From a virus (taxonomy: Duplodnaviria; Caudoviricetes), in the IMG/VR virus record IMGVR_UViG_3300033149_004108, positions 1 to 53,959 of that record: a stretch of 53,959 bases of DNA. The stretch is one strand, 5' to 3'. Numbering within the stretch: the stretch's first letter is position 1; each line of letters starts with the position of its first letter. The notes beneath the pieces were generated by a model. It had not been told where the DNA came from. It worked only from the letters and a program-made list of their open reading frames with translations, and ran no database searches. Positions 1 to 53,959 of this stretch are shown here, piece by piece. The position numbers were made by a program, and so were the translations under genes.

Positions 1-114
1 CTGCCTGGCTTGACCGACGCATTGCAGAAGATAGACGAGCCGTTCGTGTTGGATGCGAGCGTTGGTATCGAACGAGACGGCAAGCCACTGCCGAGAATCG
101 AGCTGATGACGCTG
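1..114. repeat. Terminal direct repeat (copy 1), identical to 53846-53959; circular assembly overlap
   Basis: ctgcctggcttgacc...gatgacgctg occurs at both ends, and the reading frame continues across the join. Confidence 0.97.
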
Positions 115-1926
115 ACTGCGAAGACCCCGCAACTCAAGGAGGGTGATGTTGTCAAGGCCACGGTCTTCGACCTGCCGTATTGGCGCGAATCGCTGGAGGC
201 TCTTCCGTTCGGTGAACGCAGAGAGCGGCTTGAGCAGTTCTTCGAGAAGCACCTTGCGGATGACGAGCACTTCGCTATCAGCCCCCAGAAGAAGATTGAG
301 GACAAGAAAGACCTCGAACAAGCATTCAAGGAGTTCGGGGCGCAACCAGGCTCAGAAGGAGTGGTCTTGAAGGACCTGTCTGGTAAGCCGTACGGCTCTG
401 GCGGCGTATCGTGGATGGCGAAGATAAAGCATACTGCCGAATTGAAGGTAAAGGTTCTGTCTCGTTCGCGCACTGCGATTGGTACATATGTGTATCGGGC
501 GGGGCTACTTCCGAGCATCGGCGACAAGTGGCGCAACCTGACGAACTTCAGAGGCAGGCAGTATATTGACCTCGGCGAGACCTTTGCCACGAAGTTGCTC
601 GCTCAGCCAGGCGATGTATTGACGGTACAGGTGCAAGAACTCATGCCGCGCGATAATGAACTACAATGGCTTGGTGCGAAGGTGGTAGATGTAGACAAGA
701 CGCGCAAGCTGCCGTATTACTCCTCGCAGGCGATTGACATTGCGCGTCGCGCCAATATTCTGCAAGGCGGAACGCAGGATGTGCAAAAGGCCGTTGGTGA
801 TGAAGGTGGAGATGAGACGCGCGCTGGTGCTGCATTGCGGTTCTGGGAAGAATACTGGCATGAACAACCGCCGAAGTCCGGCAAGGGCCGCTGGGTGCTT
901 CAGCATCATTGGCGCGGGCTTACCGAAGAGGAAGCGAAACTCTCCGAGAAGGAACTGATGGAGACAAGGCACTCGGTACACGCCGATATGCGTTTCACCG
1001 ATGATGACGACCACCTATGGGGGTTCTCCATCTTCATCGGAAGAACCGATGACAACAGAGACCTTGACCCGCCATGCAGGGTTGTGCATCTTGGGCCTGA
1101 CGACAAACTGCAATGCCAACCCAAGTTGGAGCAGCCGACCCAATGGCTGAAGGTTGGTGGCGGTGCTGGCGAAGCGATGGAACCTGGCGAACCTGGTAGC
1201 ACTAGCAAGACATGGAGCAAGTTCTTCATCATTGACCAGGGAACCTATGAGGTTGGTGTGTGGCGCGAACATATGCAGGAGGTGTTCGTTGAGGGTCGTC
1301 ATCTGAAAGGGCGCATACTGTTCCAGTACGCTCCGGTTGGCGGCAGGCGCATCTGGCTAATGAGCAAGCCGAAGGACCAGCGGCCATATGCTGAGACCCA
1401 CGATCTTGAGGAGGTGAAGAGAGAACTTGCCAGCAAGGGACAGAAATACCTGGTCTGGTCAAAGCCAGGCGAATGCCCACAATTCATTGAAGTGAAGCGC
1501 GCTGGCTGGTTCACATTCTCGGAGAGCAGAAAGAGAGCGGAGTACTACAGCGATATTCTGAAGGCAGACGAAGAGAAGCAAATCGTCTATGGCGTTGTTC
1601 TCGAGCCGGGAAACCCAGACCAGACAGACGCGCATGGCGATTTCATTACTGCCGAGGATATCGAGCAAGCAGCGCATGACTTTATGATTCGCTGGCGTGC
1701 TCAGAAGGCAAAGATTGGACTCCAGCATCGCAAGCCAGCGAAGTGCGACATTGTCGAGAGTTTCATTGCGCCATCGGACATGCAGCTCGGCGTTGGCAAG
1801 GTGAAGAAAGGCTCCTGGGTAATGGGAGTCAAAGTATACGACCAGCGTATTTGGAAGCAGGTTCGGGACGGCGAGCTGACGGGTTTCAGCATTGGGGCTT
1901 TCGGCGACCGCATAACCGTATCGTGA
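1..1926 (+). CDS. C-terminal part of a 1090-aa multidomain protein starting at 52499: ATP-dependent ligase core/OB fold, LigD-type 3'-phosphoesterase, XkdF-like prohead protease
   Basis: Ligase motifs VFDL, EGVVLK, MAKIK. PE motifs VLQHH, HADMRF, IDQGTYE, LKGRIL, WLMSK. XkdF motifs KADEEKQIVYGVVLEP, DAHGD, GLQH, IVESFIAP, KKGSWVMGVKV, GELTGFSIG. Confidence 0.85.
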   Translation: MPGLTDALQKIDEPFVLDASVGIERDGKPLPRIELMTLTAKTPQLKEGDVVKATVFDLPYWRESLEALPFGERRERLEQFFEKHLADDEHFAISPQKKIEDKKDLEQAFKEFGAQPGSEGVVLKDLSGKPYGSGGVSWMAKIKHTAELKVKVLSRSRTAIGTYVYRAGLLPSIGDKWRNLTNFRGRQYIDLGETFATKLLAQPGDVLTVQVQELMPRDNELQWLGAKVVDVDKTRKLPYYSSQAIDIARRANILQGGTQDVQKAVGDEGGDETRAGAALRFWEEYWHEQPPKSGKGRWVLQHHWRGLTEEEAKLSEKELMETRHSVHADMRFTDDDDHLWGFSIFIGRTDDNRDLDPPCRVVHLGPDDKLQCQPKLEQPTQWLKVGGGAGEAMEPGEPGSTSKTWSKFFIIDQGTYEVGVWREHMQEVFVEGRHLKGRILFQYAPVGGRRIWLMSKPKDQRPYAETHDLEEVKRELASKGQKYLVWSKPGECPQFIEVKRAGWFTFSESRKRAEYYSDILKADEEKQIVYGVVLEPGNPDQTDAHGDFITAEDIEQAAHDFMIRWRAQKAKIGLQHRKPAKCDIVESFIAPSDMQLGVGKVKKGSWVMGVKVYDQRIWKQVRDGELTGFSIGAFGDRITVS

Positions 1927-1935
1927 GGAGGGTGC

Positions 1936-2808
1936 ATGGGAGACCACATTATCGGGGTGAGTCTGCTAGCATGTAACGGTGAGTCCTCGGCGTTGGAGTG
2001 GCCGGCAACATATGCGGCGGTCGAGAGTTTGTTGGCGAGCGACCTGCGCGATACGCGGTTCTTCTTTGCGATGGTAGACAATGGCTCTACCTGCAAGAGA
2101 ACGATACGCTACCTGAAGAAACTTGGTAGGCGGTCGAACTTTGGGTATCTGCGGCAGGATACGAACATCGGCATTGCCCGTGGCCGCAATGTTGCTGCGC
2201 GCTGGCTACTGGAACAAAGCCCGCGTCCGACGCTGTTGCTCGAAGTACACACAGACCACGTGTTTCCCACAAACTGGCTTGGTAATCTGCTTCGATGGAT
2301 TGACGCGAAGAACAACCTGGGCATCATATCTCCTGGCATTCTTACTCCGCGCAGAACATGGGGTACGCCACAGTATCGAGCGAGTTACGCTACGAAGTGG
2401 CAGGTGATTGCGTCCGATATTACACAGTTGAGCGAGAAACTAAGCCGAGCGGTAATAGCGCGCGGTTTGTTTCACCCTGCATTGAAGCGCGTAGCGATGC
2501 TCGACGAGATTGGGCTATACCCAGATGACTGGCCCGCGAACACGAACTTCGAGGATACTGAGGAATGGTATCGCGCAGAACGGGCTGGCTGGATAGTGTG
2601 CGTGTGTTTGGAGTCGTGGGTGTACCATCACTATGGTCTCACGAGACTGGCATCGCCGATACGAAGGCACGCGGCGGCGGTAGACTGGCATAAGAACAGA
2701 GAGTATGTTGTTAGCCTACACAGCGATTGGAATGAATGGGTTGTTGGCGCTCACGCGAGCGAAAGGGCGATATTCGCAAGCACTGCCGTTGGAGATAGTG
2801 GCAAGTGA
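1936..2808 (+). CDS. Glycosyltransferase family 2-like
   Basis: VDNGST, NIGIARGRN and FEDTE motifs; GAGGAGG RBS. Confidence 0.8.
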   Translation: MGDHIIGVSLLACNGESSALEWPATYAAVESLLASDLRDTRFFFAMVDNGSTCKRTIRYLKKLGRRSNFGYLRQDTNIGIARGRNVAARWLLEQSPRPTLLLEVHTDHVFPTNWLGNLLRWIDAKNNLGIISPGILTPRRTWGTPQYRASYATKWQVIASDITQLSEKLSRAVIARGLFHPALKRVAMLDEIGLYPDDWPANTNFEDTEEWYRAERAGWIVCVCLESWVYHHYGLTRLASPIRRHAAAVDWHKNREYVVSLHSDWNEWVVGAHASERAIFASTAVGDSGK

Positions 2809-3785
2809 AGGTCGCATTATACTACCCAGTGCTATACGAAGGCGGGTGCGAAAAGCGGCTGGGCGAACTTGCTCGCTGGCTGTTGGATAATGGCGATGAT
2901 GTATACATCGTTGCCATTAGTGCGAGCCGCGTCAAGGCGGGTGAGGATATTATCTGTCGCAGATGTGGTTTTCCGCGCGAACGCATCATCACCAAGCCGC
3001 TCTACGACACGAGGACGGATGAAGAGTTCATTACGAATGTCATCGGGTGGATGCGACCAGATGTGATAGACTGCCAATGGCATGGCCCGTGGCCCAATGT
3101 AACGCTACCCATTGTGTACACGATGCATGGCGCGGGCCAATTGGTGCCGAACAAGGACATTGCCGCGGTCATCAGCGTAGAAGACCTTCCCGACGGTCAC
3201 GCGGCGTACCGTGTTGCGCCTGTGCATGTAGTGTGGAACTGGGTAGACACGAAGCGATTTCAGTTCGTCAAGGCGTTGGGTTCTGGCGTCGCATTCTTCG
3301 GGCGTGCGTTCAAGATGATTCCGAATGTAATGCATATTGCGCGCAAGTACCCAACTGTGCAGATTGACGCATACGGCTTTGGGCCGGTCCCTGCATTGCC
3401 AGACAATGTAGTGTGGCATGGATATGTTGACCCGCTCAGCGTCATCTACTCTTATCGCGTCGTTTTTGCATCGGCACAGGCCGCGTTGGAAGCGATTGCG
3501 GCGGGCAGGTTGGTAATATGCGGACATGCCCAGGATAACCGCAAGCCACTGGCTGCATTGGCCCTACCGCACAACATTCAATTGCTATCGCGTTCCCAGA
3601 TGTGGTCTAGCAAAGGGAGCGGGGCACCAGATTTCAAGCAATTGAAGAGGGACTTCGAGACTGCTAGGAAAAACAACCTAGCGACTGAGCGTGCCGTTTT
3701 GCGACGCTATATCGAAGAATACCACGACCTCGACACTCAGTGTCGAAAGATACGCGAAATCTACGAAACGGTGGTGCGAAAATGA
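2805..3785 (+). CDS. Glycosyltransferase, GT-B fold (GT4-like)
   Basis: N-terminal GGCE, YTMHG, VWNWVD..RF, ALEAIAAGRLVI; GTGA overlap with the upstream gene. Confidence 0.75.
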   Translation: MKVALYYPVLYEGGCEKRLGELARWLLDNGDDVYIVAISASRVKAGEDIICRRCGFPRERIITKPLYDTRTDEEFITNVIGWMRPDVIDCQWHGPWPNVTLPIVYTMHGAGQLVPNKDIAAVISVEDLPDGHAAYRVAPVHVVWNWVDTKRFQFVKALGSGVAFFGRAFKMIPNVMHIARKYPTVQIDAYGFGPVPALPDNVVWHGYVDPLSVIYSYRVVFASAQAALEAIAAGRLVICGHAQDNRKPLAALALPHNIQLLSRSQMWSSKGSGAPDFKQLKRDFETARKNNLATERAVLRRYIEEYHDLDTQCRKIREIYETVVRK

Positions 3786-4726
3786 ATGTCTGCATGGTAT
3801 GCATTGATGCACTGAGGCTTGACCATGTAACACCCGAGGTGATGCCACACCTTACCAAGCGGCTGGATAGTGGCCTGTGGTACTATGGCGTCAAGACGAA
3901 GACGCCGTGGACCCCATCCTCGGTAGCCGCTATGTTGCTTGGCAAAGACGACGCCTTCAGCGTTGGACCGAAAGCGATGATTGGCCACCCCAGCATTGCC
4001 GGTCGGTTACATGGTACGCACGACACTGGGGCCTTCATTGGCAATGCTACACTGACAACTGAACATGCCATGTGGGTATTCCGCGACTTCGACTATGTGT
4101 GGTCTTGTGCAATGGGAGTCGTGCCGGTATATCGCATGGATGGGGTATGGGCACAGTTCTTTGCCTGGCGCGAGCAACGCACGAGACCGTGGTTTGCTTA
4201 CCTGCACCTATGGGAGACCCATGAACCGTATCAAGTGCCGAATGATGAGGAGCCGCCAGCACCGGACTGTTTGAAGAGATGGCCGTACATGAAGCAGGGG
4301 CTGTTTGCCAGGTACATGGATCTTGATAATGCCGTGTTGCCAGTAGCAGAAGAGGCGAAGGAGTACCTTCGGCAACGATACAAGGTCTACTGCAAGACGA
4401 CGGATAAGAGACTTCGTGGGTACTTTGAGCAGGTGATAGATGACGACACCGTCCTTGTGGTGGTATCTGACCATGGGGACTCGCATGATGACGAAGGCAG
4501 GTGGGGCCATGGGAGCAAGCCATGTTTTGCGACTGAGGCTACATGTCGCGTCCTTTGTGGCATCATTGGGCCTGGCATACAAGCAGATAGGATTGATGCT
4601 TCTATGTTGAGTAACGCAGAGATACCCGATTTGCTGGTGAATAGCATCTTCGGCAACCGTCAGACTAATGCTGTTGACCAGGATAAGGTTGCAGAACAAC
4701 TGCGAGCACTGGGGTATCTAGGATGA
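3782..4726 (+). CDS. Sulfatase/alkaline-phosphatase superfamily protein
   Basis: CIDALRLDH, WTPSS, YLHLWETHEPY, VVSDHG, C-terminal QLRALGYL; ATGA overlap start at 3782. Confidence 0.8.
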   Translation: MNVCMVCIDALRLDHVTPEVMPHLTKRLDSGLWYYGVKTKTPWTPSSVAAMLLGKDDAFSVGPKAMIGHPSIAGRLHGTHDTGAFIGNATLTTEHAMWVFRDFDYVWSCAMGVVPVYRMDGVWAQFFAWREQRTRPWFAYLHLWETHEPYQVPNDEEPPAPDCLKRWPYMKQGLFARYMDLDNAVLPVAEEAKEYLRQRYKVYCKTTDKRLRGYFEQVIDDDTVLVVVSDHGDSHDDEGRWGHGSKPCFATEATCRVLCGIIGPGIQADRIDASMLSNAEIPDLLVNSIFGNRQTNAVDQDKVAEQLRALGYLG

Positions 4727-5703
4727 GTACCAACCTGACCATCTTCATGCTTGATGATTTCCTTGCTCCGTTCTTCGAGTCAATCGCTGGCTGTAATGTG
4801 ATTGTGATAGGTGGGACAAGGCAAAAACGCGCGGCTCGTCTGCGCGAGGCAGTGCGAGATGTATCTGGCAATGCCATTCTGTTGACCCTACCGACGCCGG
4901 TTACCTCACACCATATGCTATCAGAATGCTATCGTGTGTGTAAGGAAGCCGGTGTGCCAACAGTATACTGGGCTATCGAGGACCCAAACTTCTGCTCTCA
5001 ATTTCTACCACAGGCGAAGATGGTAGACTTCGTGTTCACGACAGATGCCTGCTGCATTGATGCATATCTGGAGGGCTGCAACAAGAAGGCATATTGGCTG
5101 CCGCTCGCTGCATCGCCGGAATATCACGGCCCCATTTCGCAGAAGCCGAAGTTCGATTTCGTATTCTCTGGCAATTGGTATCCCAATAAGGCGCGCATTT
5201 GGGCGACAGAAACGCTCATCATACCGATTGCCGAGAAGTACGATGTTCTCGTGTTCAGTTATCGCAAGCCGCAGAACCCAGCATTGGCGAAGAACTATGC
5301 CGGCGCGCCTTCATACCTCACGACGGCGCAACAGTACGCAAACGGGCGCATCATACTTGGGGCGAACAATCAGCGAAGTGGATTTGACGGCATCGAGAAG
5401 ACCGTAATGACGAGTATGCGCACCTTTGAGGCTTTGGCGTGTGGCAAGCCGTTTCTTACTACATCGAGCGATGCATACCAGGCACTCGGCATGACGAATG
5501 GCGTGCACTTGGTGGCTGTCAACAGCAAGCAAGAGGCGCTTGAGAAGGCGAAGGCGTTGCTGAGGAACAAGCGCATGGCGAAGAACATTGGTGACAACGG
5601 ACGCACCCTCGTACTAAGCAACCATACATACAAGCATCGGCTTGAGCGCATACTTAGAGTGGTGAGAGGAGAGAATGCAGAACAGTTCTGTTACCGATAC
5701 TGA
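4723..5703 (+). CDS. CgeB-like glycosyltransferase (Glyco_trans_1_2 type)
   Basis: YWAIEDP, DFVFTTD, WLPLAA, DFVFSG, SMRTFEALACG, HTYKHR. Confidence 0.85.
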   Translation: MSTNLTIFMLDDFLAPFFESIAGCNVIVIGGTRQKRAARLREAVRDVSGNAILLTLPTPVTSHHMLSECYRVCKEAGVPTVYWAIEDPNFCSQFLPQAKMVDFVFTTDACCIDAYLEGCNKKAYWLPLAASPEYHGPISQKPKFDFVFSGNWYPNKARIWATETLIIPIAEKYDVLVFSYRKPQNPALAKNYAGAPSYLTTAQQYANGRIILGANNQRSGFDGIEKTVMTSMRTFEALACGKPFLTTSSDAYQALGMTNGVHLVAVNSKQEALEKAKALLRNKRMAKNIGDNGRTLVLSNHTYKHRLERILRVVRGENAEQFCYRY

Positions 5704-5893
5704 GAGGTACATACGCCTTCAATGCCGACACAATCCAGAGCGGAAGGGTTGTGTGCATATTGCAAACGAAGATGGCGGCCCGCTTTGTGGCTACACACCG
5801 CGCAGCAGGCGCGTTGAGTGGGTAACGGTTGACGAGAGACCACTACAGCATGAGCTGTGTCATAACTGCTGGCTGGAGGCGTCTCGGAAATGA
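5675..5893 (+). CDS. Small Cys/His-rich hypothetical protein
   Basis: VHI...LCG...CHNC; GAGAGGAG upstream; overlaps both neighbours. Confidence 0.55.
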   Translation: MQNSSVTDTERYIRLQCRHNPERKGCVHIANEDGGPLCGYTPRSRRVEWVTVDERPLQHELCHNCWLEASRK

Positions 5894-6615
5894 GAATTGT
5901 GGTCGGCGGCATCATTCATTACAGAGCGACGATACAACAGCATCTGCGGTCTGTACTTGCACTCGATAATGGAAAACATGAGTTGAAACACGCGTGGGTT
6001 GTTGACAACTCTCCAGAGGTGGTGCGACTGTTGGAGGGCGACGCCGATGCTATTGTTGACGCAAGGATACCAGGCGATAGATATAAGCGCGAGCAGTTGC
6101 CCGCAAGCAGGCGGAGGCCAATCTATGCCAGGCTTGCTGCGTTGAGGAACATGCTTGCCGAAGTTGCTATCAGCCTTGGCGCTGACGCGCTGCTTTCGAT
6201 TGACTCCGATATTGTGGTGCCAAAGCATCTTCTGGTGAAACTTGCCGATGTTGATGTTGACTGGGTTGCGGCACTGGTGCGCAACGGTGCGGAGCCTACC
6301 ATCTACAATGTGTTCAAACTCGTCAACAATCATGTGAAGCGGTTTGCCCCCATTGTATACGAGGGTGGCTTTCAGAGGCCCACGAGTGCTGTTTGGTATG
6401 ACCCGCAAGACGAGGGAAAGAAGCCGTGTCTTGCTGCGGGTGCGGTATGCATGTATTCACGCAGACTGCTGGAATCTGCGCGGTGGAGCACGGACGGAAG
6501 GGGCTGCCAAGAAGATGTTGGCTTCGCCCGCAATGCTCACGCAGAGGGGTTCAGCGCGTGGTATGTTCCTGTAATATGTAGACACCTTACGGTTGGTGGT
6601 GCTGATGGGAACTGA
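5890..6615 (+). CDS. GT-A fold glycosyltransferase-like protein
   Basis: VVDNS, LAALRN, LLSIDSD (DxD), EDVGF, CRH. Confidence 0.7.
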   Translation: MRIVVGGIIHYRATIQQHLRSVLALDNGKHELKHAWVVDNSPEVVRLLEGDADAIVDARIPGDRYKREQLPASRRRPIYARLAALRNMLAEVAISLGADALLSIDSDIVVPKHLLVKLADVDVDWVAALVRNGAEPTIYNVFKLVNNHVKRFAPIVYEGGFQRPTSAVWYDPQDEGKKPCLAAGAVCMYSRRLLESARWSTDGRGCQEDVGFARNAHAEGFSAWYVPVICRHLTVGGADGN

Positions 6616-6847
6616 TCTTGACAAGCAAGCGGGTTTGCAGCCCACCCTGATAGCACTGAGGTGTCCAGAGGTAACGCCGAAAGGTCGGTTGTGCAACAGG
6701 CTTTTGCTTCGTGTGGTGCAGAAATCTGGTGTCTCCGTGTTGGAGACATACTGCCCGAATTGCGGGACATGGGCGCAATGGCAGGTAGAACATGGCAGAA
6801 GGCCAATCTACAAGATGGTCCGAAAAAAGTGGGGAAGAGGGGGTTGA
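6605..6847 (+). CDS. Mu Com-like zinc-ribbon regulator
   Basis: LRC...CNRLL...ETYCPNCG pattern and a basic tail; directly upstream of the capsid operon leader. Confidence 0.55.
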   Translation: MGTDLDKQAGLQPTLIALRCPEVTPKGRLCNRLLLRVVQKSGVSVLETYCPNCGTWAQWQVEHGRRPIYKMVRKKWGRGG

Positions 6848-6873
6848 CAAATAACCGACTTCGTACTTAGAAT
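6844..6873 (+). promoter_or_regulatory. Sigma70-type promoter of the scaffold/capsid operon
   Basis: TTGACA (6844-6849), 18 nt spacer, TAGAAT (6868-6873). Confidence 0.7.
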
Positions 6874-6935
6874 TGCCATGTAAGCAATCGAATAGAGGTC
6901 TGTGGCCAGTTGCGCCCAGGAAGTAGCGGCCTAAT

Positions 6936-6972
6936 AAGCGGCCCGTGCGCTAAGCGTGCGGACCGCTTTTTT
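6936..6972 (+). terminator. Intrinsic terminator/attenuator in the capsid operon leader
   Basis: AAGCGGCCCGTGCGC-TAA-GCGTGCGGACCGCTT stem (two G:U pairs, one mismatch) followed by a T-run. Confidence 0.7.
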
Positions 6973-7006
6973 GGCATATCCTTCATAGACGGTAGGTGCG
7001 TAGGCG

Positions 7007-7996
7007 ATGGTGTGGTTTGCTAGGCAGGCGATTGAGAAGGCACGGCAGTTGCGGCGGCTTGCCGTGTACGAAGTATCGCTTGTGGGCAAGCCGGCCAATC
7101 GGCGGCGCTTCCTGCTGTTCAAGTCAGAAGGAGGTAATAGCGATATGGACAGGTTGACAGAAGATGATGCCCTGGACCTGGAGGAGCGTCTGAACACGCC
7201 TGCCAGCAAGGAAGAGGATGTAATGTCTGCGCTTGAGAAAGCGGAGGGACTCTCCGACAAGGAGAAGAACGCCGTGCGCGGCGCAATGCGTCTGCTGGGG
7301 AGTCTCAAGGACAACAAGGTGATTGCAAAGGTGTTGCAGTCCCTTGCAAGCATTGCTGGCTATGGCTATGCTGCTCCAACGAAGGGCACTGGCGACAAGG
7401 ACGAGGAAGAGGAAGACAAGGATAAGAACACGGACACTCCCGTGAACAAGAGCGATAAGTTTGCGATTCCAGAGGAGATTGCCAGCCTCTCCAAGTCCGC
7501 GAAGCCCGATGAGTACGAGGCGATGCTGAAGGCAGCGCGCGAGAATCCTGGTGTGGTGGCCCTGCTTCTCCCCATTGTGAAGGCCCGCGATATGGAGATC
7601 GAGCGTCAGGCCCAAGTTCTCAAGGAGATGAAGGAGCGCGAGGAGATGGCGCAGATTGAGAAGATGGTTGACGAGGTCAATCTGCCTGGCACCTCGCGCG
7701 AGGACCAGGTCAAGTTCCTGAAGGCGTTGACTCCAGAGCAGCGCGATGCTTGGCTCAATCAGATGAAGGCTGTTGCCGCCGCTGTGGACGTTGCGAATCT
7801 GACTTCGGAGATTGGCACGTCCCGCAAGCCCGATTCTGACAAGGACTCTCCGATGGCGCAACTGGCCAAGATGGTTGACGAAGCCATCGAGAAGTCAGAG
7901 GGCAAACTGACGAAGGGCGAAGCCTGGGATCGCGTGTTGAGCACGCCCGAGGGCCAGAAACTCTATGAGACCTACGAAGCGAAGGTCGGGAGGTAA
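7007..7996 (+). CDS. Capsid scaffolding protein with an N-terminal prohead-protease strand
   Basis: LAVYEVSLVGKPAN at the N-terminus, then an acidic helical body; lies before the capsid genes; internal GGAGGT RBS with ATG at 7145. Confidence 0.75.
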   Translation: MVWFARQAIEKARQLRRLAVYEVSLVGKPANRRRFLLFKSEGGNSDMDRLTEDDALDLEERLNTPASKEEDVMSALEKAEGLSDKEKNAVRGAMRLLGSLKDNKVIAKVLQSLASIAGYGYAAPTKGTGDKDEEEEDKDKNTDTPVNKSDKFAIPEEIASLSKSAKPDEYEAMLKAARENPGVVALLLPIVKARDMEIERQAQVLKEMKEREEMAQIEKMVDEVNLPGTSREDQVKFLKALTPEQRDAWLNQMKAVAAAVDVANLTSEIGTSRKPDSDKDSPMAQLAKMVDEAIEKSEGKLTKGEAWDRVLSTPEGQKLYETYEAKVGR

Positions 7997-8464: not shown

Positions 8465-9472
8465 ATGCCACTACCGACATATAGCGATGTGCATGTGAAT
8501 GTGCCGCTGACCAACATCGCTGAATCGTGGCTGGTCCGCGAAGACCAGTACATCGCAACCCGCGTCTTCCCCGTGGTGCCGGTTCAGCAAGCCAGCGGTA
8601 AGGTTGTGCGGTACTGCCGCAAGGACTTCTTCAACGCCGAGATTGTGCGGCCGCGTGCACCTGGTGCGAAGAGCCAGGGCACTGGCTTCCACGTGGACAC
8701 CGATACCACCTATAACTGCATGAACTATGCGCATAGGTGGGAGTTGCCCGATAGGATTCGCCAGGCTGCTACCAGCCCAATCAATCTTGAGCGGACTGGC
8801 GTCGGCATCATCATGCAGCGCCTGAAACTCAAGATGGAGATTCTGTTCGCGCAGGCTGCATTCCAAACCGGCATATGGGGGTCGCAGGTAACTGTTGGTC
8901 TGCCGTGGAACAACGCGAATGCCACTCCGATTACCGATGTTCGGGATGCCAAGTTGCGCATGGCGTTGGCGACCGGCTTCGAGCCGAATACCTTGGTGGT
9001 GAATACGCAGGTCTTCGAGTATCTGCGTACGCACCCGACAATTACGGCGGTATACCGGAACAACGCCGAGCCTCAGCCGAACCTCTCTGCTTCGCAGGTG
9101 GCGGCGGTGTTGGACATCGAGCGGTTGCTCGTTGGCCGCGCCGTCTATGACGCCGGGCCGATGCAGGGGCAGTGGGAAGGAAACTTCGTGTTCGGCAACC
9201 ACGCGTTGCTATGCTACACCACGTCCGCCCCGTCCTTGCAGGAGCCAAGCGCGGGCTATGTTCTCGGATATGTTGGCGGTTCTTCATCTGGTACTGTCGT
9301 GAAGATTTCGCAGTACCGTGGTGAAGAAGACACCAACAAGGACATCTTCGTCGGCGAGTTTGACATTGATACGAAGGTCGTTGAGCCTGACCTTGGCGTG
9401 TTCTTCCCGAATGTCATCAGCGGCGACGATGTTCTGACCGAGGTAGTCATGGATGTTGACATCTGCGAGTAG
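8465..9472 (+). CDS. Major capsid protein (HK97 fold)
   Basis: 335 aa; VHVNVPLTNIA, IATRVFPVVPV, PNTLVV, PSAGY; strong AAGGAGGT RBS; synteny. Confidence 0.85.
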   Translation: MPLPTYSDVHVNVPLTNIAESWLVREDQYIATRVFPVVPVQQASGKVVRYCRKDFFNAEIVRPRAPGAKSQGTGFHVDTDTTYNCMNYAHRWELPDRIRQAATSPINLERTGVGIIMQRLKLKMEILFAQAAFQTGIWGSQVTVGLPWNNANATPITDVRDAKLRMALATGFEPNTLVVNTQVFEYLRTHPTITAVYRNNAEPQPNLSASQVAAVLDIERLLVGRAVYDAGPMQGQWEGNFVFGNHALLCYTTSAPSLQEPSAGYVLGYVGGSSSGTVVKISQYRGEEDTNKDIFVGEFDIDTKVVEPDLGVFFPNVISGDDVLTEVVMDVDICE

Positions 9473-45000: not shown

Positions 45001-47272
45001 ATCATATCGTGGGGAGTTCGGCAGGCTATCTATGCGGCGAGCGTAAGCGGTGTCCATTCTGTCAAGGGCCGCTCGTAACGCGCGCTCTACCTCTTCGTAT
45101 GTCGCCATCTCTACCTCCCTTATGCTGACTCGCGCGACGGTTTGGTCCCAGATGCCCTCACGTGCGCAGTCTCCGCACCAGTATTGCCCCTTGCGCTTTG
45201 GGTTCTCAAGGTCTTTACGCAACAGGACTAGGTATCGTTCCTTCTTGATGGGCCTTCCGCACTTTTGGCATATCCCTTTGCATGACTTCGCCATCTTACA
45301 TCCTCCTCTCTCTCCTTGCGGCCTCGAGCAGCCTCCTGGCCGCGGGATGTTCGCTCCTCTTCATCATGGACTCTGCTGCGAGAAACGCCATGTGCAGGCA
45401 GATGTCCGACAGTCGTAACCAGCACCACCATTCGGCATAGAACAGGGCCTTCAGGAGTTCGCGGTGCATAGTTCCCTTTCCCTGGCTTTGATTTCCCAAC
45501 GCGCTATTTTTTCTGCACGAATGGCCTTCTCCAGTTCCTTCTCCACCCGCGACTCGTGAGCCCAACGGTTGCGGCGACGGCACGGTCTGCCACCTATCTC
45601 TTCGTCAAACAGGCAAGAACAGAGGCGATACTTTTGGGCCAAAGGGGGAGCGCACTCTCGGCATACGCGAGGCCCAGCATCGCAAGAGGGGCATACATTT
45701 CGGCCGCATACACGGCACCAGGTCAAGTCTTCTGCTGATTCCAGTTCTCCGCACAGATCGCAGGGCCTTAATATGCCCAACCGCACCTGCTCTTCGGTAG
45801 TCAGATTCAGGAGTTCATGCGGAAGTTCCCGCAAGGCATCAGGGGCGACGCCGTATTTTAGGCATAGACGGGCATACCATTCAGCACGCTCTTTGCGCTG
45901 AGCGGCGGAGTAGCCCTCCATGCCCCGCGGTTCAGGAAACGGTTGGTAGTAATACTGCAAGGCGGTCGCCATCGCCTCGTGTTGGTCTTCGCCAACGGTG
46001 ATGTGACCGCCCTCCTTCCGAACCCTGCGCAGTAGTTTGCGGAAGTCGGCGCGCGTCATGCCACCGCGTCCCACCTTGCCGACAGTCATGGTTATCATGG
46101 CCCCCTCCTCTACACCTTCTCCGCGATCTCGCCCCTCAGTTCGTCAGCCTGTCCGCCGATCTGCGAGATGATCATCTCCAGATCGTCTCTCGTGTCGTTG
46201 GTGGCGAGGATCGCCAGGCGGCAGAATTTGTCTGTCGCCCTATCCAGCGCGTCCAACGCCTCGCCCAACAGTTGGTGTCGCCTCTCCCGTCTCGTCATCG
46301 CTCTACCTCCTCTCTGTAATTCCCCCTGCCTCATCAGGCCCTGGCTGGGGAGTCCGGGGCGACGGGCCTAACGGCCCGTTTCGGCTAGGGTCATAACCCT
46401 GCTGCCGCCCAGATGGACTCCTGGGCAAGGACCGTTACCGCTTCCGGGATAGTCCGCGGCGCATTCGGCGCGTCCCGGAGGTAGTCGGGGATCACCTCCG
46501 GGATGGTTGCATCGCCACGGAGAAGGGCGAGGGCCTTCGCGGCCAAATCGCGCGCATAGAGCCGCAAGAGCGCGCGATTTTCCAAATATGCGCGCCCACA
46601 AGCGGCCGCAGTATCCTGCGTCCATGCCTGCATATCGCGGGCATTGGGGAACAACCGCGCGGCATACCGCGCGACGTCCCCCCAGGGATGATACGGAGCG
46701 TACATCTCAAACCTATTCTCCATAGTTACCTCTCCCCTGCAAACATAGATTTCGGTCCGTTTCGGCCCGGCCATACGCCTCGCATGTCATCGACGAGCCC
46801 TTTCTCTGCAACACACGCCGCACCACGCGGATCTCGCCACCGCGCTCAACGGTGCGGACGTGGGCCAGGGTGGCCGGCCCAGGGCACCCCTCGTATTCGC
46901 GGCGCGCTTCCCCCTCGGTCTCATATTCCGCAAAGGTCGCTGCCGTTTCGACATGATAACGAATCATCTCCACTACCTCCTCTCTCCTCTCTCTGACTGA
47001 ATCCGGTCCTCTACCGATTCTCCTCGATCTCGCGCTCGACGTCATCGGCATCGGTCGTTTTGCCCATCGCCGCCCGGTTGCCGAGGCAGGGGCAGGATTT
47101 CCAGCGTCACCCCGTCCAGGGATGGATTTCCTCCCATGATGCCGTCCCTGATTCCCGCCTGGAGTTCCCGCGCACACTCCTCGCACAGGTTCCACTCCTG
47201 CCCCTCCAGATAGCACGTTGCTGCCCGTTTGACGCCAGCCTCCAGACACGAATCGCACAGCACTGGTCTCAT
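42064..47272 (-). other. Early region of about 18 small hypothetical ORFs, many with CxxC motifs
   Basis: Coupled ORFs with strong SD motifs downstream of the promoter at 47352-47379. Confidence 0.55.
44078..44479 (-). CDS. Small zincin-like metallopeptidase domain protein
   Basis: IYIRKRL...TACHEVLHLAHP...E (HExxH). Confidence 0.6.
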   Translation of the reverse strand: MTPDEYAKMAVDFWCERLLRRRKRENWPWVTCSVRVWNEEHDTRRPNSCKALNMLLDSQTRAAGVIAGVSCIDCNGIYIRKRLSRKEAWRTACHEVLHLAHPSWGEDKVYAEERRLCEEHPMPRPHELQVMLG

Positions 47273-47351
47273 TCTCTCTACCTCCTCTCTGTTCTCTGCC
47301 CTCTCCCTGCCCCCTCACCCCTCACATATATACCACATATCCACCGTCCCC

Positions 47352-47379
47352 ATTATACATATATATATCACCAGGTCAA
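47352..47379 (-). promoter_or_regulatory. Main leftward early promoter
   Basis: Minus strand TTGACC-16 nt-TATAAT; spacer resembles that of the 40556-40584 promoter. Confidence 0.7.
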
Positions 47380-48510
47380 CCCCCAGGGGCCCTTTTTCAC
47401 GACATAGCAGCAAAAAATAGCAGTTCGGGTGGTTGGAGGGGTAGCACCCGCTCGCTTGCTCTCGCCTTGTAATATAGCGGGGGGCGCCGAGATAGTGCCG
47501 AGGGGCACAAGGTTTTAGTGGGCGTTAGAGGGGCTTGTGAGGCGTTTTACGAGGGGTTGGGGAAAGAAAGTGCCGGCCGGCACAAAGTTTGCGAGGGGCG
47601 TGGAGTGCGGGGTGTGGGGGCGGGGGTGCTGGTGGGTTGGCCGCGTGCAAGGGTTCTGCAAGCGTTCTGCGAAGCCCTGTTGGGCGCGCAGGTCCATCCG
47701 CCCAGCATCGAGAGGGTGGCCGTCAACGGCCCTGCCCTAGCCGAAGGCGCTCGTTGCGGCCCCCGTTCCCTCCTGGTGGCGGGATCGTAAGCCCCGGCCG
47801 GCCGCCTGCGCTCCAGGAGGTGATTGGCCAGGGAGGCGGCATAGGTCATCGCCAGCTCTACCCCGCCGCTCTACCTCGGCCTAGGGCCCCGCGTAGTCCG
47901 TCCGCCTTACCACGGACATTGCCGCCTCCTGCCCCGCTCTGGTATGGGCGCACCCCCACCACCTGGCTGGGGTCCTCGAAGGCGCGCGGCCTGGCTCTTA
48001 CCTCCAGGACGGCCCGCCGCGAGACGGGGGCGCGCTCGACCACCCGCCGCCGCCTGCTTCTCCCTCTCCGCCAGCCAGAATAGGTCCCCTGGTCCTGGCC
48101 CTAGTCTCGTAGGCCCTGGCCCCTGGCCGAGGGATACCCCCCTGCCTCGCCTCTAGCGCGCACGAGAACCGGAACTGCGCCGCCCCCGCCATGCCTCTCC
48201 ACCTATCGCCACCTCGCGCAGTCCCCTCCCTCGACGCAAACACAGGCCTGCCCCTTACCCCCATCCCCACTTGCTTGCCCGCCATGCGACCACCACGCTC
48301 CCTGGACAGTCAACGCCCCCGCCGAGGGTTCGGCCGACGCCTCGCCGAGGGGGCAAGCAAGGGGAGTCTCAGGGATTTTGCCAGGACCCGCTTGTGCCTC
48401 CGAAAACACCCTCCGACCCCCTCTCGCGGCCGAAGCGGGTTTTATTGCGGTTCAATGGGTTGCGCGAGGGATATATAAGTGATAGTCTGGGGGATAGGAG
48501 GAAGAGAGAC

Positions 48511-49245
48511 ATGGCGGAACAGTGCACGGCGATACTGAGCAATGGCGAGCGGTGCAAGCAACCGGCGTTGAAGGGATTTGACAAGTGTCGGCATCATAGT
48601 GGGATGAAGGGGGAGAAGTGGCTGAAGAATCCTGGGTCGATATTGGGGAAGTATCGTCATGGGTTGTATGCGAAGTTGCTGCCGAAGTTAGAGGCGGAGA
48701 TATACAAAGAGACGCAAGATGCGGACCTAGCGGCGGAGGGGGCGAGGTTATTGGCGGCGAAGTTGGGGGCGTACATGGCGATGCAGCGGGACAGGGTGAT
48801 GAGGGGAGAGGAGGACCTATCGAACGATGCTGAAGTGATGGAGTTGTTGAGCAGGGTGGCGCATCGGATGGGGTCGTTGCAGAAGATGAGCAAAGAGATG
48901 CAGGAGGGGAAGTTGAGTGGCAGCAACACGGTGAATGTGGCGATTATCTGGGGAGGTGAAGGAGGGGCGGGGATGCCGCCTGCGGTGATGGCGAGGGTAG
49001 AGGAAGTGAAGGGGGAACTGGGGGATGGGAGTGATGACGGGGTAGTAGAGGGTGAGGTATTGAGCAAGGCGCCGGGGGCTGAGGAAGTTGGGGAGATGGT
49101 GAAGGAGGTTGAGAAGCGGCCGGTAAAGCGGAAGCGTCGGAAGCCGAGGAGCAGGGGGGTGGGAGGCGTGCGGAAGCGGCAGAGGGATATGGCGGTTGGG
49201 TTAGACCCGCGGGTAGTGGCGAGGACGGCGAAGCGGGCTGTGTGA
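48511..49245 (+). CDS. Terminase small subunit-like protein (HGGxSTG-type N-terminus)
   Basis: AGGAGG RBS and ATG at 48511; C.A....G.RCK.PA.....CRHHSG and RHGLY; directly before TerL. Confidence 0.65.
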   Translation: MAEQCTAILSNGERCKQPALKGFDKCRHHSGMKGEKWLKNPGSILGKYRHGLYAKLLPKLEAEIYKETQDADLAAEGARLLAAKLGAYMAMQRDRVMRGEEDLSNDAEVMELLSRVAHRMGSLQKMSKEMQEGKLSGSNTVNVAIIWGGEGGAGMPPAVMARVEEVKGELGDGSDDGVVEGEVLSKAPGAEEVGEMVKEVEKRPVKRKRRKPRSRGVGGVRKRQRDMAVGLDPRVVARTAKRAV

Positions 49246-49252
49246 GCGTGTG

Positions 49253-50749: not shown

Positions 50750-52199
50750 CGCAAAGCGAACGCCGAAGAAAAGGAAGAAGGCGACAACCGCTACTGGTGG
50801 CTTTGCGAAACCGCGCGTGTTCAACTTCAGCAAGGCGTTGAACGCAGAAGCGCAACGCGTAGACACATTTGCCGGCCAGATTGGGACCACTGGTCTGCGC
50901 AGGATGGGGCCGTATGTCGTCGAGGAGTATCTGACCGAACTGCGCGGGAAGCAGGGGCGCGCCCGCTATCAAGAGATGTACAACACGGATGTTGTGCGCC
51001 GCGCCTTGCGAGCGATTCTGCTGCCGATGTTGCAAGCGTCGTGGCGGGTTGAAGGCGGTGCGGGTGCGGATGCTGAGCGGGCGCGTGAGTTTGTCGCACA
51101 GTGTATGGACGACATGTCGCATACCTGGCGCGAGTGGCTACAGGATGCGTTGATTGGTACTGCGGTGTATGGCGCGTCATGGTATCAGACGATATACAAG
51201 CGTCGGTTGGGGCCGAATCAGCGCGATGCAAAGAAGCGGAGCAAGTTCAACGATGGCTTGTGGGGGTGGCGGAAGTTCAGCCCTCGCTATCAGAACACAT
51301 GGGAAGGTTGGGAATGGGATGACGACGGGGATATGAAGGCGCTGATTCAGAGCGACCCGTATTCCGGCAGAGGCAAAGTAGTAATCCCGCTGGATATTTC
51401 ATTGCACTTCACATTGGAGGGGCGGCTTGGCAACCCAGAGGGGGAAAGTTTGTTGCGCGCAGCGTACCAGCCGTGGTACGGCTATCGCCACGCCGAGATA
51501 TGGACCGGCATCCTCATCGAGCGCATGGGCGGTATCCCTGAGTTTGCGGTAGAGGACGCGAATCTGCCGTTGTTCTCGGATGATATTCCAGAGATGCAGA
51601 ATCTGCGCTCGTACCTTGAGGATGCGGGCACTGCGTTCCGATTGGACGAACAGACCTGCATCATCACGCCGCCTGGCATCAAGTTCAACTTGCACACGCC
51701 TGCGGTGAGGGTGAACGACCTCATTCGCTACATGCAGTTCTGCGCCTGGAGAATCATGGGGTGTTTGCTGGCACAGTTTCTCGAACTCGGCCAGACGCCG
51801 TATGGCTCTTACGCGAAGACCGAGAGTGAAAAGGACTTCTTCCTGCAATCGTGCCAAGCGATGTTGCAGGCGATTGCTGATGTGCTGAACAGGTATGAGT
51901 TGCCGAGACTCTTCAAGTTGAACGCCGGTTCGTTTACTCAGCTCGAAGAGTTGCCGCAGTTAGTGCCCACCGATACGCGAGCACCTGACTTGACGACGGT
52001 TGCTGAGCCGTTGGCGAGACTCGTGCGCGCTGGTGTGATGGAGCCGTATCCTGCGTTGCAGGCGTATCTGCGTCAGATTGGTCATCTGCCCGAACCTGAT
52101 GAAGAGGAAGAGGATGGACCAACGACGCGGATTGAAGAGGAACCAAACGGTGAGGAGGAGGAAGCACAACATGCGAACGAGGTTGCAAACAGAACTTGA
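50739..52199 (+). CDS. Portal protein (DUF935 / Mu gp29-like)
   Basis: GGAGGT RBS; IGTTGL, GNPEGESLLRAAYQPW, IERMGG.P, LAQFLELG..GSYA. Confidence 0.85.
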   Translation: MPDNAKRTPKKRKKATTATGGFAKPRVFNFSKALNAEAQRVDTFAGQIGTTGLRRMGPYVVEEYLTELRGKQGRARYQEMYNTDVVRRALRAILLPMLQASWRVEGGAGADAERAREFVAQCMDDMSHTWREWLQDALIGTAVYGASWYQTIYKRRLGPNQRDAKKRSKFNDGLWGWRKFSPRYQNTWEGWEWDDDGDMKALIQSDPYSGRGKVVIPLDISLHFTLEGRLGNPEGESLLRAAYQPWYGYRHAEIWTGILIERMGGIPEFAVEDANLPLFSDDIPEMQNLRSYLEDAGTAFRLDEQTCIITPPGIKFNLHTPAVRVNDLIRYMQFCAWRIMGCLLAQFLELGQTPYGSYAKTESEKDFFLQSCQAMLQAIADVLNRYELPRLFKLNAGSFTQLEELPQLVPTDTRAPDLTTVAEPLARLVRAGVMEPYPALQAYLRQIGHLPEPDEEEEDGPTTRIEEEPNGEEEEAQHANEVANRT

Positions 52200-52498: not shown

Positions 52499-53959
52499 AT
52501 GGCGAGAAGCCAACGATTCCTTGAAGCCTGGTATCAGCGTGTCAGTCCCTGGGTAAAGCGGTATCTGCCAGGCATTGCAGACAGGTTGTTGCGCCAAGCG
52601 AGGGGCGAAGCCGGCGGGCGTTCATCGCCATTGAAGGTTGATGCGGTTGAGAAGATGGCGTTGGGCGTTTTGAACGAGAAGAATGTGCGCAGCCTATCTC
52701 GCAACGAAGTCTTGAATCTTCATCGCCGTTGTCATCAGTTGGTAGCGCGCGCCAAAACATCGGCCGATATTGACACTGCCGAACTTGCCCGCGCCCATTC
52801 GCTACTCGTTTCCGAGATGAAGCGGCGCGGTATGTTCCACAGGTCGCCGTTGCAGGCGTGCATGTTGAAGTCGGAAGTAGTATCAGATGATGTTCCAGAG
52901 GAACTGGTAGTCATTCCCGACTTCGTTTCTGTGGTGGGTTCATCTGTCGCCGACGCAGAGAAGGCGAACGATATAGATGTGCTGTTTCGCGCTACGCGTG
53001 GAGCGAAGGGCTTCACGATACCTGCCAAAGGCATTGAGGTGCTCGCACGCAAGGCTATTGCGCCGCGCAAAGATAAGGAACTCCACTATATCGACGAACC
53101 GACTGGGCCGCATGCTGATTACATCCCGTTGTACGACCTCGTGTTGCGGCGCAGTAAGAGGCCCAAGCAAGTCGTGAAGGGGGATGGCGAGCACGACAAG
53201 GTTGACCTCGGTTGCGGAGATAACAAGCCCGCCGGCTACTTTGGCATTGACAAGCAGCCAGGTGATGCTGTTGATCTTGTTGCTGACCTGGAGTTTGGGA
53301 TTCCATTGCCCAGTGAATCTGCTGAAGTAGTGCGCGCTCATCACATACTGGAGCATCTACCCGACAAGGAATCAATCATGGCGGAGATTTGGCGCGTGCT
53401 CAAGCCAGGAGGGATTGCCGATATTGTCGTTCCGTCATCCGAGGGGATTGGTGCTGATGCAGACCCGACGCACAAGAGCAGATGGAACTCTGCATCATTC
53501 GCGTTCTGGACTGAAGAGAGTCTGCTTGCAGACCGCCCTCGTTTTGAGGAGGTGTCTGTTGAGTCAAAGTTGCAGCCGAACGGCAGCATATGGGTGTTTG
53601 CGAAGTTGCGCAAACCTGTTGAGAAGGCGGTAGCACCACTCAAGACATTTACTCCGCCGAAGCCGAGTATGGCGGCAATCACCGAAGTATTCTCGGTTGA
53701 TGAAATCTGGGATGCGTGGGTGAAGAAGCATCTTGACGGCGGCGTTGTCGCTGAACCGAAGTACAATGGCTTCCGCGCGATCCTCACTGGCGATGGCAAG
53801 GGTAGCGTCTCCATCTGGTTCGAGGACGCGAAACGGGAACACGAACTGCCTGGCTTGACCGACGCATTGCAGAAGATAGACGAGCCGTTCGTGTTGGATG
53901 CGAGCGTTGGTATCGAACGAGACGGCAAGCCACTGCCGAGAATCGAGCTGATGACGCTG
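52499..53959 (+). CDS. N-terminal part of the 1090-aa multidomain protein: small helical domain, Pol-beta-type nucleotidyltransferase, class I SAM methyltransferase, ligase adenylation motif; continues at position 115
   Basis: Hand translation from ATG 52499 has no stop; VVGSS...NDIDVLF; DLGCG, HILEHL, WRVLKPGG, DPTH; EPKYNGFR; in frame with 1..1926. Confidence 0.88.
   Translation, partial: MARSQRFLEAWYQRVSPWVKRYLPGIADRLLRQARGEAGGRSSPLKVDAVEKMALGVLNEKNVRSLSRNEVLNLHRRCHQLVARAKTSADIDTAELARAHSLLVSEMKRRGMFHRSPLQACMLKSEVVSDDVPEELVVIPDFVSVVGSSVADAEKANDIDVLFRATRGAKGFTIPAKGIEVLARKAIAPRKDKELHYIDEPTGPHADYIPLYDLVLRRSKRPKQVVKGDGEHDKVDLGCGDNKPAGYFGIDKQPGDAVDLVADLEFGIPLPSESAEVVRAHHILEHLPDKESIMAEIWRVLKPGGIADIVVPSSEGIGADADPTHKSRWNSASFAFWTEESLLADRPRFEEVSVESKLQPNGSIWVFAKLRKPVEKAVAPLKTFTPPKPSMAAITEVFSVDEIWDAWVKKHLDGGVVAEPKYNGFRAILTGDGKGSVSIWFEDAKREHELPGLTDALQKIDEPFVLDASVGIERDGKPLPRIELMTL
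53846..53959. repeat. Terminal direct repeat (copy 2)
   Basis: Identical to 1-114. Confidence 0.97.

Follow-up and report, generated by a model that had tools for sequence, protein, structure and literature searches.

The virus record IMGVR_UViG_3300033149_004108 (Duplodnaviria; Caudoviricetes), analysed here over its whole length of 53,959 nucleotides (the window), encodes a polyprotein of several enzyme domains that ends in a head protease and, about 5 kb further on, a separate scaffold protein. Both proteins carry a short motif in which a hydrophobic residue stands two positions before a lysine. The locus thus raises the question of whether this motif is the code by which the protease recognises its cut sites, as an initial annotation made from the sequence had proposed, or whether it has some other origin. 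We put the probability that the motif is the cleavage code of an XkdF-type head protease, by which the scaffold is degraded and the cargo enzymes are probably separated, at roughly two in three.

The motif was scored as [VILMF]-x-K-[ASGM], with the cut predicted after the lysine (h denotes a hydrophobic residue below). The scan recovered the same 12 sites in the 329-residue scaffold that had been listed initially, where 2.17 are expected, and a count of 12 was reached in none of 5000 shuffles. None of 24 other proteins of the window is off expectation in the same test (lowest P 0.135). Because the motif had been chosen after seeing the data, about 16,800 three-position patterns were also scanned blindly; the lysine motif came first (Poisson 3e-6), and only one in 1000 shuffled scaffolds gave a result as extreme. 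The motif in the scaffold is therefore confirmed as real and more than chance. Cutting at all 12 sites is predicted to leave pieces of 7 to 70 residues.

Shuffles are blind to local structure, and the scaffold, which has a high content of K, E and A, is predicted to be helical. It could therefore be argued that such lysine-rich helical proteins favour the motif for reasons of structure or composition, such as helix packing or contacts with capsid or DNA, that the conserved lysines in the linkers have some other role, and that there is no proteolysis. Some h-x-K occurrences are indeed conserved for structural or catalytic reasons, as in the ILK strand and the VKKGSW motif of the protease. We nevertheless regard this explanation as distinctly unlikely. 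The excess is specific to lysine, since exchanging it in the motif for E, D or R gives counts of 2, 0 and 0 (the first being the T4-type code [VILMF]-x-E-[ASGM], with 2.47 expected), and when only the spacing h-x-x-[ASGM] is required, whatever stands in place of K, the count (24 against 21) shows no enrichment. On the strength of these controls, helical periodicity was rejected as an explanation of the excess.

The enrichment over shuffled sequences extends to relatives. A scan of viral contigs with an 8-row protease alignment gave 80 related loci, of which 62 are non-identical (individual loci carry L numbers below). Summed over these interrelated loci, the gene directly after the protease gene, which is the scaffold position, has 364 motif sites against 111.8 expected (ratio 3.26), and the protease-bearing gene has 441 against 180.7 (ratio 2.44), whereas all other gene positions from -4 to +8 have ratios of 0.44 to 1.38. 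Taken individually, 35 of 58 downstream genes are enriched at P < 0.05. Among 17 scaffolds less than 50% identical to each other, the position two before the lysine favours I (3.4-fold), V (2.4-fold) and L (1.5-fold), and the position after it favours S (1.9-fold) and A (1.6-fold). Profiles centred on E or R are flat in the same 17 diverse scaffolds, which is not what a habit of helical composition would give. The window's scaffold itself had no family match, no close relative in annotated phages, and only itself as a return from the word-indexed protein database. It is not an orphan, however, as blastp aligns it along its whole length with post-protease proteins of related loci at 27–34% identity.

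Scaffolds of phages that have no head protease behave differently. Observed and expected counts are 1 and 1.21 in P22 gp8, 1 and 0.54 in T7 gp9, and 2 and 1.37 in SPP1 gp11, that is, without excess. In T4 gp22 the lysine motif is again at expectation (2 against 1.93), while [LI]-x-E occurs 16 times against 5.70 (P = 3e-4). The count thus recovers the known L/I-x-E code of T4, so the method detects a code where one is present, and the lysine code accompanies the XkdF protease. The same comparison bears on a host enzyme: the sites might be cut by a trypsin-like protease of the host, or mark some other lysine-directed modification. Cutting after lysine is a common specificity, and beyond this nothing specific speaks for the idea. 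In 62 loci of varied sources, only the protease gene and the gene next to it have the excess, which tracks the XkdF protease, with nothing seen in phages that lack it. Such an origin is a very remote prospect.

The capsid proteins show the opposite pattern. As initially annotated, the major capsid protein of the window has no motif, which on its own is uninformative (0 against 0.58 expected), as is the single site of the portal (1 against 1.09). Over 38 capsid homologues, however, the motif is depleted to 0.37-fold (13 against 34.8, P = 2e-5), while plain h-x-K is not (154 against 137.9). The small residue after the lysine therefore seems to matter, because only the small-residue form is avoided. 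That the capsid proteins are depleted in the same phages also counts against a general compositional habit.

The protease of the window is of a different type from the one first considered. The initial annotation had reasoned from HK97, and this was not borne out: the last ~120 residues of the polyprotein match PF14550 with 105.1 bits (cut-off 24) over profile positions 4–125 of 126, and PHROG 3017, head maturation protease, with an E value of 2.9e-38, whereas PF04586, the HK97-type S78 profile, has no match to the polyprotein at E 0.01 or better. D50, H83, E93 and S137, numbered in a 148-residue piece, are invariant in 38 sequences including that of the window, and the putative catalytic residues would be found among them. 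A full-library search with the protease domain gave 7234 relatives at E 0.001 or better. Of the best 150, which are 128–1507 residues long, all but 4 have the end of the match no more than 20 residues from the C-terminus. Cultured phages with XkdF proteases include PAK_P1/JG004-like phages, ICP1 and rV5-like phages. The cargo in front of the protease varies: according to Pfam, 48 relatives of at least 450 residues carry methyltransferases, DNA ligase, domains of the uracil-DNA glycosylase (UDG) superfamily, Acb1, 2H phosphoesterases, ChaB, Dam-type methylase, NUDIX, ADP-ribosyltransferase and others. Protease domains of the present kind are named assemblin-like in the available passages of Iyer et al. 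2017 (PMC5512222), whereas Iyer et al. 2021 call XkdF unrelated to the SH peptidases. The Felix O1 protease belongs to S49 and is thus irrelevant as an XkdF comparison.

Whether the polyprotein is cut as well as the scaffold is a separate matter, since its case is one of position and conservation and not of count. All six linker sites of the initial annotation were found where it had placed them (52646, 52862, 53171, 53618, 781 and 1555), as were the two matches inside domains, VVK/A and VKK/G. Five of these eight lie among the 20% of residues whose predicted local distance difference test score (pLDDT) is below 50 (binomial 0.010). Conservation was judged as the presence of h-x-K within two columns in an alignment with 18 homologues that carry other cargo. 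The proposal that the motif marks every linker stands in part: K52, K227, K376, K712 and K970 are conserved, with h-x-K in 10–18 of the 15–18 homologues compared at each, but K124 is not. Most homologues have h-x-K a few residues away from K124; K376 is nearly invariant in alignment A4. K970 is invariant too, and h-x-K-[AVST]-[DE] is found there in nearly all of 119 anchored homologues. It lies, however, in the predicted first β-strand of the protease domain (residues 517–523 of a 641-residue piece), so its invariance may be structural, and the site could be either a cut site or a structural strand. The in-domain VVK/A (K501), also in a predicted strand, has h-x-K in none of 16 homologues, and the other conserved h-x-K occurrences belong to known catalytic motifs (ligase K573, VKKGSW of the protease) or are followed by Pro. 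The best-supported joints are therefore K227, K376 and K712, and K52, K124 and K970 are weaker.

These observations have to be set against a narrower reading, in which the code exists but serves to degrade the scaffold alone, perhaps with the hook described below severed as well, and the polyprotein stays whole or is cut once or twice and is delivered as a single polyvalent protein. The polyprotein of the window has no overall excess, as this would predict, and some polyvalent proteins travel at full length, according to passages of Iyer et al. 2017 (PMC5512222). In homologues, moreover, the lysine at a joint is often followed by a residue that is not small, and it is only the small-residue form that capsids avoid. 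On the other hand, h-x-K is kept at K227 (12/15), K376 (15/18) and K712 (13/16) amid neighbours that are not conserved, and inserted domains bring flanking sites of their own: in two homologues an Acb1 domain is inserted directly after the K227 site, and in three a UDG domain is inserted at K712 with h-x-K on both flanks. Over 87 cargo regions, the motif count is 279 against 160.1 (1.74-fold), with flat controls for E (0.97) and R (1.12). We therefore consider it unlikely that cutting is confined to the scaffold. The occurrence of the same signal at unstructured joints of unrelated enzyme domains is likewise hard to ascribe to helical packing.

Several points weigh against cleavage at the joints, or against the cleavage code as a whole. 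A literature search found no experimentally determined cut site for any XkdF-type protease; for the scaffold of ICP1, fragments of about 23 and 17 kDa are reported, with no site given in the available passages (PMC10945586). Counted over its full length, the polyprotein has 8 sites where 5.19 are expected (P = 0.14), which is no enrichment; K124 lacks conservation, and K970 is part of a strand predicted for the protease fold. Among homologues, the residue after the lysine at the joints varies (Q, E, K, N, L, V), and at K52 it is always hydrophobic (M, L or V). Given that avoidance in capsid proteins is limited to the form with a small residue, a joint that lacks one may be a poor site. The surroundings of motif lysines are only slightly less hydrophobic than those of other lysines (0.299 against 0.312, P = 0.016), and with so weak a separation, a linker-likeness proxy made of local hydrophobicity and Pro/Gly content adds little. 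Finally, the loci are related to each other, so that summed counts overstate the independent evidence, and the alignments behind the AlphaFold2 (AF2) models are shallow (19 rows), with residues 116–230 of low confidence though probably containing a domain.

A physical link between protease and scaffold is suggested by the N-terminus of the scaffold, where residues 11–39 form a putative docking peptide. In an alignment of 22 scaffolds, E22, S24, V26, A30, N31, F35 and K39 of this peptide are invariant. The docking motif starts 37 of 51 downstream proteins, and a gene beginning with EVSLV..(P/A)AN..F..K begins within 450 bases downstream of the protease stop in 44 of 62 loci. Across these 44 loci the frames of the two genes relative to each other are spread 15, 16 and 13. 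The scaffold is therefore a separate gene, and a read-through or frameshift joining it to the protease was rejected. In one related locus, L063, the EVSLV peptide and the protease are found in one chain.

When the protease domain was modelled in complex with residues 1–60 of the scaffold, the score was 0.74, against 0.00 for the best control; the mark used for this score is reached by 116 of 157 solved complexes and by 2 of 215 mismatched pairs. For the partner, pLDDT is 49 or higher, and 64% or more of the contacts are shared between runs. Residues 19–26 of the scaffold (within 11–29) are paired in this model with residues 133–141 of the protease, its last strand, which holds the invariant serine of the GFSIG sequence. 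The model supports binding of the scaffold to the protease without proving it. Protease and scaffold amount to one gene that has been split, and resemblance to the single-chain relatives may account for the high score.

The docking peptide would not be present in all copies of the scaffold. An AGGAGG stands 10 bases before an in-frame ATG (Met47), just after the invariant lysine. Such an in-frame internal start with a ribosome-binding site is conserved in relatives: a Shine-Dalgarno-like site precedes the first ATG after the invariant lysine in 25 of 39 scaffolds with the docking motif, against 36 of 220 other internal ATGs. Met47 is therefore a likely internal start giving a short scaffold that lacks the docking peptide, and the pattern suggests an abundant short scaffold with a rarer long form bearing the hook. 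The conserved E-G-G residues of relatives may be kept partly for encoding the ribosome-binding site.

Taken together, the findings can be arranged in a sequence of events that we infer in its main parts, from the cutting itself and its order to the use of the internal start and the injection of cargo, with docking taken from a model. The 1090-residue polyprotein carries a leader, a helical module, a nucleotidyltransferase-like (NTase-like) stretch, a methyltransferase, a ligase and a phosphoesterase-like domain, with the protease last. Most scaffold would probably be made from the Met47 start, without the hook, while a minority long form would start with a β-strand peptide (EVSLV..PAN..F..K) that pairs with the last protease strand. 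By this pairing, protease and cargo would be tethered to the scaffold and so built into the procapsid. Inside the procapsid, the protease would cut after motif lysines, first behind the hook at LFK/S and then at about ten further scaffold sites, leaving pieces of at most 70 residues. It would also cut the joints of the polyprotein, thereby freeing each enzyme as a separate protein in the head, to enter the host with the DNA. The capsid protein avoids the motif. We lean slightly towards the further view that [I/V/L]-x-K followed by A, S or G is a general specificity of XkdF proteases, and that the protease is a split enzyme that is hooked, and perhaps switched on, by the strand of the long scaffold.

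The FSK/A site that the initial annotation had noted near the N-terminus of the portal is there, in an N-terminal extension. The portal class shows no enrichment (45 against 47.3 expected). A set of 46 upstream open reading frames (ORFs) of 400–620 residues, which mixes portals and terminases, includes 11 that are portal-like and carry a site among their first 40 residues. Related portals with h-x-K-[AS] in the first 40 residues, before the conserved core, occur in L052, L054, L064, L074–L081, L027, L042 and L050, which hints that some portals are trimmed too. The portal of the closest relative, L003, has no site in its first 40 residues. The positions of all features are collected in Table 1.

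Table 1. Coordinates in the window of the polyprotein, its candidate cut sites, the scaffold and neighbouring head genes.
Feature	Position	Strand	Evidence and remarks
Polyprotein part 1, residues 1-487 of 1090	52499..53959	+	ORF; Pfam; AF2
Polyprotein part 2, ligase to residue 712 through protease stop at 1926	1..1926	+	ORF; Pfam; Foldseek
VEK/M (K52), leader end	52646..52657	+	Ends low-pLDDT 34-52; h-x-K in 10/17 homologues
MLK/S (K124), after helical module	52862..52873	+	In low-pLDDT 116-230; h-x-K within two columns in 3/18 homologues
VVK/G (K227), joint before methyltransferase	53171..53182	+	h-x-K in 12/15 homologues; confident fold begins 4 residues on, at 231
VEK/A (K376), methyltransferase/ligase joint	53618..53629	+	Opens low-pLDDT 376-400; h-x-K in 15/18 homologues
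VQK/A (K712), ligase/phosphoesterase-like joint	781..792	+	Middle of low-pLDDT 706-722; h-x-K in 13/16 homologues
ILK/A (K970), seven residues before protease core	1555..1566	+	h-x-K in 18/18 homologues; predicted strand of protease domain
XkdF-type prohead protease domain	1552..1914	+	PF14550 (Peptidase_S78_2); PHROG 3017
Sugar-modification cassette, five genes (GT2, GT4, sulfatase-family, GT1-like/CgeB-like, unnamed 241-residue)	1936..6615	+	Pfam
Scaffold protein, 329 residues, 12 motif sites	7007..7996	+	K11, 39, 78, 148, 163, 175, 192, 219, 239, 288, 296, 303
Putative docking peptide, scaffold residues 11-39 (...LAVYEVSLVGKPANRRRFLLFK), ends in invariant LFK/S	7037..7123	+	Alignment of 22 scaffolds
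AGGAGG, 10-base spacer, in-frame ATG (Met47), after invariant Lys; likely internal start	7129..7147	+	Sequence reading
Major capsid protein, lambda gpE-like, 0 motif sites	8465..9472	+	PF03864, PHROG 1005
FSK/A, portal N-terminal extension, residues 51-54	50826..50837	+	Motif scan

The size and layout of the polyprotein depend on how the record is read. The record is complete, and its first 114 bases equal its last 114 (1–114 = 53846–53959), a direct terminal repeat that is probably the assembly overlap of a circular or circularly permuted genome. The repeat lies inside the polyprotein gene, whose ORF crosses the record end and resumes at the record start, so that a linear reading of the record splits or lengthens the gene. 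With the repeat removed, 52499–53959 joined to 115–1926 encodes 1090 and not 1128 residues.

The first part of the polyprotein consists of the leader (residues 1–52), the helical module (53–124), the NTase-like stretch (125–227), an S-adenosylmethionine-dependent methyltransferase (228–376) and the start of an ATP-dependent DNA ligase, and in the second part the ligase ends at residue 712 and is followed by a LigD-type 3'-phosphoesterase-like domain (about 723–949) and the protease. The methyltransferase matches Methyltransf_11 of Pfam (37.9 bits), and a sequence search of solved structures returned methyltransferases and nothing else. The ligase matches DNA_ligase_A_M of Pfam and, by Foldseek, DNA ligases (E 4e-8); the phosphoesterase-like domain matches the LigD 3'-phosphoesterase 3p43, also by Foldseek (template modelling score 0.79 by target, E 8.8e-6). 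When the polyprotein was folded with AF2 as two halves, from alignments of the window protein with its 18 homologues, the confident blocks of the first half were 53–115, 231–375 and 423–487. Residues 125–227 (52871–53179), which have no Pfam match and low AF2 confidence, contain GS...DIDVLF, a GS...D-x-D pattern typical of Pol-β-type nucleotidyltransferases, and on the basis of this motif may be NTase-like. Joined to the methyltransferase, ligase and 3'-phosphoesterase, such an NTase would complete a set for healing and sealing ends that recalls systems of DNA or RNA repair. The leader (MARSQRFLEAWYQ..., 52499–52654) corresponds to a separate gene of 87 residues in L006 (6276–6536) and L008 (4414–4674), where V-D-K-A follows as well; it may be an independent targeting or portal-binding module.

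The head module lies on the + strand in the order large terminase, Mu-type portal, polyprotein, five sugar-modification genes, scaffold, decoration-like protein and capsid protein. A scan of viral contigs with the capsid protein as query confirmed no relative. The placement of ~5 kb of sugar-modification genes between the protease and scaffold genes is unusual, and is also found in L003 and L006, where the cassettes at the same place are larger and of the same kind. The five cassette proteins have motif counts at expectation (0, 1, 0, 1 and 0) and are outside the cut-site system; their enzymes may glycosylate virion proteins or a host surface polymer. Ahead of the large terminase, an ORF of 324 residues (48271–49245) that matched no family may encode the small terminase. 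Guanine-plus-cytosine content rises to as much as 0.63 in 46000–50000, and the strand switches between leftward and rightward gene blocks near 48 kb.

To our knowledge, head-protease codes are known for few phage groups, namely T4 and phiKZ-like phages, which cut after Glu, and HK97, with one site after Lys. A code for XkdF proteases would let annotators predict which enzymes are released in the capsid and injected with the DNA, and would give exact boundaries for expressing cargo enzymes, many of which resemble tools of counter-defence or DNA repair (ligase, phosphoesterase, methyltransferase, UDG-like, Acb1-like). If the specificity is indeed general, the protein content of mature heads, including ligases, methyltransferases, UDG-like, Acb1-like, 2H, ADP-ribosyltransferase and NUDIX domains, could be read from sequence, and the hook would couple cargo loading, protease activation and scaffold removal. 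The hook would then also be a simple rule for loading foreign cargo into a capsid, which is relevant to engineered phages and capsid delivery. These prospects follow from statistics and models and share their uncertainty.

The architecture itself is already in print. Iyer, Burroughs, Anand, de Souza and Aravind (2017, PMC5512222) described phage polyvalent proteins with a C-terminal assemblin-like peptidase, which they proposed to process the protein during virion assembly. The polyprotein of the window likewise joins unrelated domains (methyltransferase, DNA ligase, LigD-phosphoesterase-like domain and protease) in one polypeptide, its gene lies among the head genes of a terminase-portal phage, and the peptidase is last, as it always is in the published proteins with their several enzyme domains and late or head gene setting. 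The passages of that paper that were available differ in describing no cleavage motif, scaffold link or docking mechanism, and in what we have covered of the literature the lysine code was not found in print. Also related are the single-chain XkdF protease-scaffold proteins (L052–L081, L063), which share the protease domain and have 7 to 10 motif sites in their tails. In the window, however, the protease is the last domain of a cargo-bearing polyprotein, and a distant gene of its own encodes the scaffold.

Comparable codes are found in other heads. The prohead protease of T4, gp21, cuts at L/I-x-E in gp22, gp23, internal proteins and Alt, and the annotation of gp22 reads 'degraded by gp21'. 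Like the code proposed here, the T4 code is short, has an aliphatic residue two before the cut, crowds the scaffold, and releases packaged proteins. The differences are that the cut follows Glu in T4 but would follow Lys in the present system, that the T4 protease belongs to S77 and not to PF14550, and that T4 cargo travels as separate proteins with N-terminal targeting peptides, whereas the cargo here is fused to the protease. The HK97 protease gp4 cuts gp5 at K103/S104 (PMC10275583, in the passages available). This resembles the present system in that the cut falls after Lys before a small residue and a scaffolding part is removed; it differs in that scaffolding in HK97 falls to one domain of gp5, the capsid protein itself, the protease matches PF04586, and there is no cargo fusion.

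A parallel to the proposed pair of scaffold forms is lambda C/Nu3, in which a long and a short head gene are nested and the abundant short scaffold arises from an internal in-frame start. In both, an abundant short scaffold would be accompanied by a rarer long form that links scaffold and protease, as read in our case from sequence alone. The long form of lambda contains the protease itself, whereas the long form predicted here would carry only a strand that binds it.

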